A stretch of DNA of 32,000 nucleotides from Megasphaera sueciensis. Lineage in GTDB: Bacteria > Bacillota > Negativicutes > Veillonellales > Megasphaeraceae. The stretch covers positions 85,961 to 117,960 of the forward strand of contig NZ_CP116939.1 in the NCBI RefSeq assembly GCF_050219315.1. The letters are read 5' to 3'. Positions 19,435 to 22,767 of this stretch are shown in pieces. Below the pieces are notes generated by a model. The model was not told the DNA's origin. It saw only the letters and a program-made list of their open reading frames with translations, and ran no database searches. A program made the position numbers and the translations under genes. How positions within the stretch are numbered: the first letter of the stretch is position 1; every line of letters starts with the position of its first letter.

Positions 19435-19504
19435 CTATTTTGCACACGGGGGCGTGCAAAATCCGGATTATTGTTGTATTATATTAATTACATGGTAGGG
19501 GTGG
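19435..19504 (+). repeat. Direct repeat copy A (70 bp)
   Basis: Aligns without gaps to 22698-22767 at 59/70 identical positions. It contains a perfect 9-bp-stem hairpin, attttgcac / gtgcaaaat, at 19437-19462. Confidence 0.85.
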
Positions 19505-19721
19505 GAAAAGAAAACATAAAACGAAATTAAAATAAATTTTTGATATTAAAAATGAGAAATTTAAAATCGGAGTTCTATCATTCCATGGGAACATATCGAC
19601 GAAAGCTGTTTTTTGATAGTTTAGACAGTGAATTGGATAATGGGTTCATGAGTGTGTGAGTTGGATATAATAGCTGAAAAATGTTTTGTGTTGTCAAAAT
19701 ATTATATAGGAGAGCGCTTAT

Positions 19722-20135
19722 ATGACAAAAAAAATTAAAATAACATTTCATCATATAGGAAAGCCTGTTTCGTTAGAAAGTATAAAAGATAATAAAGATA
19801 CTAAATATAGTCCTTTATTCGATATGTATTCATTAGATATGCAAAATGACTTATCTATTCCAATTGAATTACATGCATTTGGAAAACATTCTCCATTAGA
19901 TAGTCGAGTTCAGACAGAAACTCACGTTGCTTTTAAAGTCAGCGATATTATATCTGTATTACAAGATAAAGAAATTGTTATGCCTCTTTACCAACCATTT
20001 TTTGGTTACCGCTGTGCAATGGTAATAATCAATAATCAATTGATTGAATTAATTGAAACATCATTATCTGAAAGAGAAATTTGGGGAGATGGAGTATTTA
20101 AGGATAGTATTCTTTACCCGATAAAAAATAACTAA
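19722..20135 (+). CDS. VOC (glyoxalase/bleomycin-resistance/dioxygenase) superfamily protein
   Basis: 137 aa. FHHIGKPV and THVAFKVSDI are paired beta-alpha-beta-beta-beta module signatures. A TAGGAGAG RBS is present. Confidence 0.6.
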   Translation: MTKKIKITFHHIGKPVSLESIKDNKDTKYSPLFDMYSLDMQNDLSIPIELHAFGKHSPLDSRVQTETHVAFKVSDIISVLQDKEIVMPLYQPFFGYRCAMVIINNQLIELIETSLSEREIWGDGVFKDSILYPIKNN

Positions 20136-20391
20136 AATATGGGTACAATCTGTCGAAGATTGTTTACTATAGATATACTGGATACCAGACGGCGGAGTAT
20201 ATGAAAAATCAACTGGAAAAAGTTTTATCGGCGGGCAAACCTGCCATTTACGAAATGTACTGGTTGGGAAAATGCGGCCCCCTTTAATTGTCTTAAACAA
20301 ACGCCGAGAACTGATGGCACAGGTATCAAGAAGGGGTTCGAGAGGTTGAAAAATAAACGCAGCACAGCTGTGGGTAAGGAGCGAACATGTT

Positions 20392-20946
20392 ATGCCAAAT
20401 CGAACAGGAACCTATGTTGCATTTGATGGATTAGGTCAAACCGACCCCACGAAATCAGACTTCAGATACTATGCAACTCTCCAAGCATGGAATGGAAACG
20501 ACAATATTGAATTTAAATTAACTAACAGCCACGAAAAGACAGCTGCCGTGCGCGACACAAGCTTACGGGCAACACTCTATTCTCGCATTCAAGAAAGGTT
20601 TCGTGGTTCCAAGAATATGCTTGTCATTCTCACGACGGATACCCGCAAAACAGGCAGTGTCCTTTCCTATGAAATCGAGCAAGCTATCGATACATACGAG
20701 ATCCCTCTTATTATCGCATACCCTGGATACTCGGCAATCTGTAATGTAGATGCGCTCAGTGGCATGTGGCCAAAGGCACTTTCGGACCGTATTAATAATA
20801 AAGATGTGGAAGCGATTCATATTGCTTTTGCTAAAAATCCCATCATAAATGCTATTTCTCGCTTTTATGTAAATGGCGAGCATCTGTCTAATGGAAAGAA
20901 CTATTACAACCGCCAATCATATGTTGACTGGGGGCTTGTTGAATGA
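20392..20946 (+). CDS. thsB: TIR-like (MTH538/DUF1863-type) protein, ThsB-like, paralog 1
   Basis: TAAGGAG RBS. The sequence runs NRTGTYVAFD...WN...F..SHE...VRDTSL...SKNMLVILTTDTRK...YEIEQA and is clearly paralogous to 21845-22360. Confidence 0.65.
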   Translation: MPNRTGTYVAFDGLGQTDPTKSDFRYYATLQAWNGNDNIEFKLTNSHEKTAAVRDTSLRATLYSRIQERFRGSKNMLVILTTDTRKTGSVLSYEIEQAIDTYEIPLIIAYPGYSAICNVDALSGMWPKALSDRINNKDVEAIHIAFAKNPIINAISRFYVNGEHLSNGKNYYNRQSYVDWGLVE

Positions 20947-21773
20947 AAGTATCGCCCTTTGATAAGAGAGTGCTAAACAAATTCTACGCTTTTCTTAGCG
21001 CGATAAGCGTAATCACATCGATTGTATTTCTGTTTGTCGGCATAGATGATAAGAACAAGCTAGTCGCGGGTGTGGTGGCTTTTGGTGCGATCGTCCTCGT
21101 TTACATCGGAATCTTATATTACGTAAATGTACGACGGAGCATTCAGCTTAAGATAAATACTTCTGAAGTCGAGGTGTATTTTGGCGACATCTTTGAGGAT
21201 ACGGCAGAACTCAAAGCTATCTCTTTTAACGAGTATTTTGATACACAGGTAGACAATAAAGTCATTTCAAAGACCTCTTTGCACGGACAGTTTATCGAAA
21301 AGTTTTACAGTGGCCGGGTGGATATCCTAGACGGCATCATTGCTTCAGATGAACATTTGCCAGTGATGATCGCAGGCGAAAACTCTACGCGACCGGCGGG
21401 CAAAAAAACTAAGTACAAGCTTGGAGCCGTCTGCATGGCAGAAGAATATCTGCTGATTGCACTATCGCGCTTTGATGTGAACAACAAGGCTTTCCTTGAG
21501 ATATCTGACTACATTAGCTGCCTGCTTACATTTTGGAATGAGGTAGACAGAGTATATGCTGGAAGAATTCTAGCACTACCAGTATTAGGCTCTGGGATTA
21601 CCCGTTTTAGGGATTACGAAAACGTATCCGACCAAGAGTTGCTAGAGCTTATCATCTGGACATTCAAATTAAGCAGAATCAAATTTACATATCCGTCCAA
21701 GGTCAAGATTGTTGTCTGGGAGAAAAAGAGTGAAAAGATAAACCTGCAAAAACTGAAAGATCTTGAGACATGA
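20943..21773 (+). CDS. thsA: Two-TM membrane protein with a C-terminal Macro-like domain, ThsA-like (type II Thoeris effector)
   Basis: ATGA overlap with the upstream gene. Two hydrophobic helices are present (FYAFLSAISVITSIVFLFVGI and LVAGVVAFGAIVLVYIGILYYV). Downstream motifs are YFGDIF...FNEYFDT...SLHGQF...ALPVLGSGITRF. Confidence 0.55.
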   Translation: MKVSPFDKRVLNKFYAFLSAISVITSIVFLFVGIDDKNKLVAGVVAFGAIVLVYIGILYYVNVRRSIQLKINTSEVEVYFGDIFEDTAELKAISFNEYFDTQVDNKVISKTSLHGQFIEKFYSGRVDILDGIIASDEHLPVMIAGENSTRPAGKKTKYKLGAVCMAEEYLLIALSRFDVNNKAFLEISDYISCLLTFWNEVDRVYAGRILALPVLGSGITRFRDYENVSDQELLELIIWTFKLSRIKFTYPSKVKIVVWEKKSEKINLQKLKDLET

Positions 21774-21844
21774 GATACTTCTCATACTTGATGTGGCATC
21801 AAACATTATTAGAACAATCTATATGAATTGAAGGGAGAAGAATT

Positions 21845-22360
21845 ATGGCTAATAGAACAAGAACTTATATCGCGGCAGACTGGGATGGCGACAAAAACGC
21901 TATCGATCAGATGCACACATGGAATGATAGCAATAAATGGAGCTTGTCTTTTACAGACGCACACGATCTAACTCAAGCACGGGATTCTAGCCTCAATTGT
22001 AGTATTAAGGAGTCTCTTGCGGCAAGGATGGATGCTTCCAAGACATTCGTTCTAATCGTTGGGAACGGCACAAGGAGCCGTAAGGCTGGCGAATGTACAT
22101 ATTGCGAACATTACGACAATGGCAAGTGTAAAAAGGGCCACACCATTAGCAATGACAGTTTCCTTGAATACGAATGTAAAAAGGCAGTTAGGGATCGCAA
22201 TGACATTAAACTTGTTGTTCTTTATAATGCCGCAACTGTTGACAAGAGAAAATGCCCAGACGCTATTAAGAATTATGGTACGCATACTGTGATGCAAAAA
22301 ATGAAAGATGGCAAGCATTATTGGGATTATGAGTCTGTCAAAACTGCTATGGGTCAATAA
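21845..22360 (+). CDS. thsB: TIR-like (DUF1863-type) protein, ThsB-like, paralog 2, with a Cys/His-rich insertion
   Basis: GAAGGGAG RBS. The sequence runs NRTRTYIAAD...WN...F.DAHD...ARDSSL...SKTFVLIVGNGTRS, followed by the insertion CTYCEHYDNGKCKKGH before LEYECKKA. Confidence 0.65.
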   Translation: MANRTRTYIAADWDGDKNAIDQMHTWNDSNKWSLSFTDAHDLTQARDSSLNCSIKESLAARMDASKTFVLIVGNGTRSRKAGECTYCEHYDNGKCKKGHTISNDSFLEYECKKAVRDRNDIKLVVLYNAATVDKRKCPDAIKNYGTHTVMQKMKDGKHYWDYESVKTAMGQ

Positions 22361-22476
22361 TAACGACTATGGCACACTAGAATTTCAACTTTGAACACGG
22401 TAACATTTTATCCCACTCTGTTCTCACCAAAACATCCAAGTCACCATCGTTGGTACGGTAATAGATATGACGAAAG

Positions 22477-22517
22477 CCTTGAAAACGCTGACATTTAAGC
22501 TGTTTTCAAGGTTTTTT
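22477..22517 (+). terminator. Rho-independent terminator downstream of the three-gene locus
   Basis: ccttgaaaac (22477-22486) pairs perfectly with gttttcaagg (22502-22511), followed by TTTTTT (22512-22517). Confidence 0.7.
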
Positions 22518-22697
22518 GCATTTGGAGAAAAATTGTGTTTTTAGTGGGAATTTGGATTGAATTCAGGTAAAAAGTAGCAATGGTTGTCCTGCTAAATAGA
22601 ATTTGTCCCTACGATTTGACGAAACTCAGAGTGCCGATAGAGTGTGGGTTTATAAGTGTTTTGGAGAGGAGAAAGTTAGAAAATTAAAATTATATTA

Positions 22698-22767
22698 GCT
22701 ATTTTGCACACGGGGGTGTTCAAAATCCAGACCATCGTTGCATTGTATCAATTACGTGGTAGGGTTG
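22698..22767 (+). repeat. Direct repeat copy B (70 bp)
   Basis: 59/70 identity to 19435-19504. Similarity stops exactly where the comFC-like LDDIYTTG coding sequence begins. Confidence 0.85.

Follow-up and report, generated by a model that had tools for sequence, protein, structure and literature searches.

Large serine recombinases (LSRs) drive prophages and other elements that split host genes and restore them, such as A118 and phi10403S in comK of Listeria, SPbeta in spsM of Bacillus subtilis, and skin in sigK. Another well-known case is that of SCCmec and composite staphylococcal cassette chromosome (SCC) islands, which are mobilised by the LSR pair CcrA and CcrB. We analysed 32,000 nucleotides (nt) of Megasphaera sueciensis (contig NZ_CP116939.1, positions 85,961 to 117,960, hereafter the window), where two copies of a 70-nt direct repeat, A and B, bracket genes of the Thoeris defence system next to a truncated comFC gene. 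Our results make it quite probable that this is an LSR-driven phage-like element integrated in comFC, with copy B as its working right end and copy A as a fossil end stranded by the addition of the Thoeris genes.

The locus resembles the elements of comK, spsM and sigK in that the LSR genes lie beside one end, attP and attB share only the central dinucleotide, and the insertion falls inside a coding gene of which sister strains have intact alleles. As for the Listeria comK prophages, the target is a competence gene. The differences are that we find two tandem LSR paralogues, a target in the phosphoribosyltransferase motif of comFC, head genes without tail genes, a putative internal fossil arm, a 45-bp conserved extension (palindrome and spacer) beyond the usual attP span, and an excision that we infer. 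The resemblance to SCCmec and composite SCC concerns the adjacent pair of LSR paralogues and the recombinase-less cargo between att-derived repeats. Yet in SCC the repeats reproduce the shared attB/attSCC core, lie at both boundaries and can still recombine, whereas the repeat studied here is an element-specific P arm, absent from the left boundary, with an inner copy that has degenerated and was seen at no junction.

In E. coli, prophages have been found integrated into other prophages and clustered in tandem (Nakamura et al. 2021, PMC8112680). Those clusters also have att-related sequences inside prophage DNA beside cargo (effector) clusters, and their cargo also builds up by element-on-element integration, as we propose for our locus. 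In those cases, however, the phages have tyrosine integrases and use attB copies that were picked up from the chromosome, and both partners are still complete prophages, whereas only a cargo cassette and an end segment would remain here. Mobile elements inactivating natural-transformation genes have been reviewed (PMC12378983) and include AbaR islands in comM (PMC11441513); the disruption of comFC by an integrating element is another case of a disrupted DNA-uptake gene. The literature that we searched contains no description of comFC-targeting LSR elements in Megasphaera.

The attachment sites in comFC

Comparison contigs (L numbers) were brought in by exact-protein look-ups and by pattern scans of genome, viral and metagenome collections, and their hosts were identified from cluster members. 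Three loci of the same species (L016, L019, L021) have an intact comFC of 218 amino acids (aa) and match the window at 100% identity from 22768 on, in agreement with the original prediction that copy B ends at the comFC junction. Others, such as L012, are from Megasphaera paucivorans, a relative at 94% identity. In L015 and L018 the comFC site is occupied by an element with other cargo (ArsR and P-type ATPase). The public contigs provided all four junctions: attB (GTT-GA-TGAT), attR (TTG-GA-TGAT), attP (TTG-GA-CGTA or GCAA) and attL (GTT-GA-CGTA). The only sequence that they have in common is GA, and the insertion point in comFC is the GA of the codons GTT-GAT (V-D of LLLVDDIYTTG). In a relative, attL and attR are about 35.7 kb apart on the same contig (L046 and L015).

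The left junction was traced via a truncated member of the ComF cluster, P0013, a 198-aa ComF fusion protein (...THLLLVD-VMTLGLIQNNKKCA); two viral-contig scans for attL returned nothing usable, and a locus search based on DUF6076 returned unrelated att sites only. In five contigs attL consists of the 5' part of comFC followed by an unrelated P' arm (GTTAGTT-GA-CGTAATGACGTTGGGATTGATACAA, with the junction sequence ...CTGTTAGTT-GA-CGTAATGACG...). The attP junctions, seen in at least 8 contigs, have an inverted-repeat architecture symmetric about GA: the dyad is ATTGTATCAAT-15 nt-GA-15 nt-ATTGATACAAT, where ATTGATACAAT lies in P', and P matches the reverse complement of P' at 15 of 28 positions. 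The first left-end open reading frame (ORF) probably starts at a GTGTGCA motif in P'.

Three types of sequence follow GA at the right junctions: comFC (TGATATTTATAC...) or its orthologues in other Megasphaera-like hosts; a secondary target; or the element's own left arm P' (CGTAATGACGTTGGGATTGATACAA or GCAAAGATGCTTGGGATTGATACAAT). Both LSR ORFs match PF00239, PF07508 and PF13408 and have YARVS motifs, and they share about 68% DNA identity over short stretches. The att set and these two adjacent genes have all the appearance of a textbook serine-recombinase att system. The original prediction included a model of two elements integrated in tandem, with a third copy of the repeat beside the 5' part of comFC. 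When the left boundary was followed in the attL contigs, the third copy was absent, because attL carries the P' arm instead, and a profile search was significant nowhere at attL in the five contigs. Such an absence is expected, because attP and attB of serine recombinases share only the 2-bp crossover.

The secondary targets are an hsdM-like N6-methylase gene, where the element ends at GA (L009:8428-8560, GA followed by CCCAACGTGTGGTACAGCCGG, DPTCGTAGF motif), mazG (L059:8239-8400) and an Acidaminococcus hominis locus (L022:4064-4200), the last two also at GA. At least the hsdM-like target is again a coding sequence for a nucleotide-binding motif. Small ORFs are predicted across the junctions: one of 61 aa starts at an ATG in the conserved CCCATGATATC flank and runs through the terminal unit into the comFC remnant (L015:10604-10789), and one of 64 aa crosses attP into the first left-end gene (L004:11774-11968). 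We found no evidence of conservation suggesting that these two ORFs are real.

A probable working end and an inner copy

The two copies align without gaps at 59 of 70 positions, as originally predicted, and are the longest direct repeat of the window. BLAST matches them at E=5e-9, and a profile built from the other terminal copies matches copy A at E=5.6e-18. Copy B had been placed one nucleotide too far left (22698-22767, with a spacing of 3263): the repeat proper spans 19435-19504 and 22699-22768, at a spacing of 3264. The hairpin attttgcac-N8-gtgcaaaat was found as predicted, with a perfect 9-bp stem in copy A and one mismatch in copy B.

The scans and look-ups revealed 9 further distinct core versions of this unit, or 17 terminal-unit sequences including A if the comparison extends to 25 nt of upstream flank and to the base following the crossover. 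Every further version is the extreme right end of an element, stopping at ...TTG-GA. Each element has one such segment, which always lies at the crossover irrespective of the cargo beside it; this cargo includes ArsR with a P-type ATPase, an AAA protein, FRG/GIY-YIG proteins and others. The unit is not a generic repeat; it is the conserved right-terminal segment of an element family. The 70 bp are made of a 26-bp palindrome, a 17-bp spacer and the P half-site of attP, of roughly 25 bp, which ends at the crossover. Backbone homology within the family ends at the stop codon of the second LSR gene (LSR2, about 18430) and resumes at the terminal unit, so the stretch between them reads as a variable cargo slot. 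Profile searches found no further fossil copies in other elements.

The family consensus of the palindrome is ATTTTGCACAC-GGGG-GTGTGCAAAAT, with an 11-bp stem and a GGGG loop. The palindrome lies 43-68 bp from the crossover, beyond the typical span of an LSR attP. Because it is invariant across the family, we suggest that it is a candidate binding site for an accessory protein outside the core attP. Two other roles were considered and rejected. Prediction of terminators on the + strand did not call the palindrome, which lacks a T-tract, and an Rfam search at both repeats gave no match at E<=1, which rules out an intrinsic terminator or a known structured RNA. The motif occurs nowhere else in the window, and an operator repeated through the element is thus not supported.

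The two copies differ sharply in their surroundings. The identical copy B sequence abuts 8 different right flanks (comFC of several hosts, the hsdM-like gene, mazG and two P' types), while copy A has a single right flank in all loci; a unit of the copy A type with another flank was found in none of the scans, whose pattern did match A. Copy A has 6 private substitutions at positions that are invariant in the terminal variants (indices 18, 37, 46, 50, 66 and 70), as compared with 0-2 private changes in each real terminal variant. Two of them are in the ATTGTATCAA motif and one is at the crossover, where GA became GG. Copy A also has the lowest profile score, 63.9 bits against 79.7-86.1 for the terminal copies. 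Its upstream flank is 94.5% identical to the flank preceding the true end of L027, where a pair of genes encoding a small multidrug resistance (SMR) protein and a MarR regulator (93% identity) is followed by a terminal copy and then by GA-P', without Thoeris genes. Copy B thus appears to be the active attR arm, the end that is actually used. Given its single flank, its private changes, its low score and the match to the true end of L027, copy A looks like a stranded former right end whose decay is argued by comparison. A by-eye match between ATAAAACG in the right flank of copy A and ATACAACG in B' was discarded because it is out of register.

Origin of the arrangement and competing explanations

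The favoured explanation is a series of steps. The window from 1 to 22769 would be the right part of a phage-like element, with a capsid and no tail, which the LSR pair would insert at GA into comFC of the M. sueciensis/paucivorans group. By analogy with the biology of other LSRs, the recombinases and a directionality factor, for which the SHOCT and sigma-r4-like genes upstream are candidates, would pair the attR of copy B with attL, restoring comFC and excising the whole element, Thoeris cassette included. Copy A would be the former right end of an ancestor carrying SMR and MarR genes, as still seen in L027. A cassette comprising a promoter region, the 137-aa gene, the ThsB-ThsA-ThsB genes and its own functional terminal segment would then have joined just outside copy A. 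The route that we prefer would start with two related elements in tandem. A single deletion, arising either illegitimately or through LSR action at a pseudo-site, would then have taken out the stretch between the P' arm of the second element and a point just ahead of the att-proximal cargo of that element, which would leave exactly the structure seen. Redundant after the join, the inner arm would have begun to decay, and the composite would spread as one unit.

The block from the SMR gene to copy B (SMR-MarR-A-137aa-ThsB-ThsA-ThsB-B) is 97-100% identical where recombinase and backbone diverge to about 73%, and is present in several different host backgrounds. Exact look-ups of the 137-aa protein and of MarR showed the whole composite in 20 of 20 places; these look-ups covered 23 of about 80 index blocks each and the reported contigs overlap. 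Junctions of the P-GA-P' type occur inside contigs longer than one element, of 135 kb (Ga0455831_063; L004 and L005; L004/L005:1500-3500 and L004:11757-11900) and 48.7 kb (IMGVR_UViG_3300042975_000060; L027), which suggests tandem arrays of related elements. In the same loci (L004/L005 and L027), the holin gene is separated from a SHOCT gene by an ArsR-thioredoxin-ArsP insertion. Some copies of the composite are decaying or mis-assembled: a 368-bp deletion fuses the second ThsB gene to copy B and the comFC remnant into an ORF of 220 aa (L006:8040-8702, also L055 and L067), and in L007, L056 and L069 the two recombinase genes are fragmented.

Several points weigh against this explanation. No donor with the Thoeris cassette but without the SMR-MarR-A segment came to light, either in exact look-ups of ThsA, MarR and the 137-aa protein or among the homologues of the 137-aa protein. 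No resemblance to P', B' or another locus was seen in the 217 nt that follow copy A on the right, and they give no clue to the joining event. The divergence of copy A from the L027 end is only in weak excess of that of the flank (9/71 vs 38/580, P=0.08). Copy A is identical in every locus, and its relaxed constraint is deduced only from the comparison with other ends. Finally, the contigs with P-GA-P' junctions could instead be circular or concatemeric forms.

A more general version of end addition would make the palindrome and P arm a portable end cassette by which these two-recombinase elements grow through serial end-capture. With each cargo captured, a new functional end would arrive and the former one would be left behind like a growth ring. 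Alternatively, copy A might be a conditional secondary site through which the Thoeris cassette is shed or handed on as a 3.26-kb circle, which would amount to an integron-like cassette economy run by LSRs. We regard such extensions as unlikely.

Copy A might also have been kept for a role unrelated to recombination, for example as a protein-binding or transcription-insulating site between SMR/MarR and Thoeris. Its palindrome, a perfect 9-bp stem, is better preserved than its P half-site, where ATTGTATCAA and the crossover are mutated, and the palindrome is invariant in the family despite its distance from the crossover. But the stem of copy A was shortened from 11 to 9 bp by a change in the stem-closing T of the family, the negative results on terminators, Rfam families and further motifs in the window speak against this role, and the identity of copy A in all loci leaves no evidence of selection. 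We give this explanation little credit.

The original tandem model, in which two autonomous or cis-mobilisable elements sit at one att site with functional repeats on each side, was right in taking the repeats for genuine terminal (att) segments of an integrating element. The part that does not survive is the Thoeris module as a second element, along with the third repeat copy. The module does lack a recombinase, as in pseudo-SCC and CIME elements, and the P-GA-P' junctions show that two members of the family can adjoin. However, attL has P' in place of the repeat, no P'-like arm was found on the right side of copy A, which itself has degenerated at invariant sites, the crossover among them, and the look-ups of the 137-aa protein and MarR never showed the module alone or in another combination. 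The comparison with SCC composites and CIME elements leads to the same observations, as the repeat is not at every boundary (no copy at attL in 5 contigs), the internal repeat does not seem usable (one flank against 8, and 6 private substitutions), and the module is neither alone nor missing (20/20 places with the full composite, from overlapping look-ups). In this form the tandem model is decidedly improbable.

The second mobility model had recombination between the repeats excise a 3.26-kb circle with the defence genes; the reverse, entry of such a circle by Campbell-type insertion or by LSR exchange between two P arms, belongs with it. The topology fits, since a single crossover of a circle with one copy yields a cassette between direct repeats, and a Campbell-type insertion of a circular one-unit cassette would be topologically equivalent as the origin of the original insertion. 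But the genome, viral and metagenome scans revealed no circle junction, no product of a deletion and no junction of the copy-A type with another flank, and no SMR-MarR-hybrid repeat-comFC product was found among 10 distinct contexts of the identical MarR. Nor is the L027 end a hybrid of A and B. The longest identical run between the copies is 18 nt, at 84% identity overall, which is short for RecA-dependent exchange, and LSRs do not normally recombine two like arms. We consider this model very unlikely.

Descent of the repeat from the 3' end of a protein-coding gene, which had been suggested from a coding-like pattern of substitutions, is barely credible: the frame was translated correctly (YFAHGGVQNPD...W*), and one codon phase does hold 7 of the 11 mismatches, with 6 synonymous in that frame, but the bias is not significant (any-phase P about 0.12), variable positions across the other distinct terminal variants are spread 6:4:6 over the three phases, no ORF reaches upstream of the unit in any locus, and the unit is absent from intact comFC. 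We ruled out a coding origin on the phase distribution and this P value.

Gene content and biological meaning

The features of the window are given in Table 1. The predicted Thoeris genes have strong profile matches in Pfam (ThsA_Macro at 5.8e-58 and ThsB_TIR twice) and PADLOC (ThsA1 at 1.8e-103, ThsB at 3.7e-63 and 2e-78), and the hydrophobic N-terminus of ThsA is visible in its sequence. They form a Thoeris defence system with a ThsA of the transmembrane (TM)-Macro kind, which we take to be the one labelled type II.

Table 1. Features of the window, with positions counted from its first nucleotide
Feature	Position	Strand	Basis and remarks
Phage-like genes (1)	1-14966		Pfam and gene calls on matching contigs: DUF3987 primase, VRR-NUC, SNF2, HNH, TerS, ParB-methylase, amidase
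Phage-like genes (2)	1-14966		Pfam and gene calls on matching contigs: TerL, portal, ClpP, capsid, connector, head completion, holin, sigma-r4-like
LSR1, 552-aa ORF	15161-16819	+	Pfam Resolvase, Recombinase, Zn_ribbon_recom; catalytic-serine motif AAYARVS at N-terminus
LSR2, 527-aa ORF, paralogue of LSR1	16834-18417	+	Pfam Resolvase, Recombinase, Zn_ribbon_recom; motif AGYARVS
Cargo set 1: SMR efflux protein	18583-18906	+	Pfam
Cargo set 1: MarR regulator	18940-19383	+	Pfam
Copy A	19435-19505 (with crossover position)	+	Palindrome 19437-19462; degenerate P half-site about 19478-19503; crossover reads GG
Cargo set 2: 137-aa protein	19722-20135	+	Without Pfam or PADLOC match
Cargo set 2: ThsB	20392-20946	+	Pfam ThsB_TIR
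Cargo set 2: ThsA (TM and Macro domains)	20943-21773	+	Pfam ThsA_Macro
Cargo set 2: second ThsB	21845-22360	+	Pfam ThsB_TIR
Copy B (P arm of attR, 22699-22767)	22699-22768	+	Palindrome 22701-22726; spacer; P half-site with ATTGTATCAAT at 22742-22752
Crossover dinucleotide GA	22768-22769	+	Only sequence common to attB, attP, attL and attR
comFC 3' remnant, B' side of attR	22768-22875	+	DDIYTTGATL...SSGAL*, the last 35 codons of the intact 218-aa Megasphaera ComF
Host genes	from 22876		HD, SpeD, DUF362, ClpB, TmcAL, AckA

From P' to P, the element encodes replication functions (DUF2800, an Enc34-type single-stranded DNA-binding protein, PolA, a DUF3987 primase and SNF2) and small and large terminases, portal, ClpP, capsid, connector, head-completion protein, holin and amidase, as pieced together from the window (1-15000), L046:10550-20597, L001 and L071. 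Tail tube, tape-measure and baseplate genes were not found in this interval. Because it lacks tail genes, this may be a 'head-only' element of roughly 36 kb that uses a helper phage for tails. A locus from the same sample as L001, itself identical to the window, has a second cargo slot at the left end, just inside attL (L048:5782-15600). There, DUF6076 and a 269-aa gene give way to apparent defence genes, whose products are an Eco57I-like methylase, a C5-methylase, an Alw26I-type restriction enzyme, HhH-GPD, AAA_15 and MC2/CTD6-domain proteins.

The 137-aa protein had been labelled a vicinal oxygen chelate (VOC) protein. Its sequence has glyoxalase-like motifs (HHIG..., HVAFKV, IELIE), yet it had no Pfam or PADLOC match at E<=0.01 and no sequence relative in the PDB, so this label found no support. 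It belongs to a family without Pfam annotation that has members at 60-81% identity in Ruminiclostridium, Sporomusaceae, Liquorilactobacillus, Enterococcus and Bacillus cereus; these homologues in other Firmicutes adjoin a ParE/Phd pair or a 124-aa gene, without Thoeris nearby. SMR genes often carry a guanidine riboswitch. None was detected in the leader of the SMR gene, where a match to the Rfam family rli23 remained below threshold (18526-18610, 29.6 bits vs a gathering score of 45).

Overall, the repeat pair is a real and explained feature, of an ordinary kind and well resolved, in an element family that is apparently undescribed. The integration chemistry of this family is pinned to four att forms, a GA crossover and the DDIYTTG codons of comFC. 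The att forms and the recombinases are directly testable and are a potentially useful new LSR/att pair. In this locus Thoeris appears to be the att-proximal cargo of a mobile, capsid-encoding element and not a free-standing island, and the same composite is found in comFC of several hosts, in the hsdM-like gene and in mazG, which bears on the way defence genes spread. If copy A is indeed a fossil arm, it would be a concrete record of the stepwise accretion of cargo at the end of an element. The disruption of a DNA-uptake gene by such an element is in line with what is known of the conflict between natural transformation and mobile elements.

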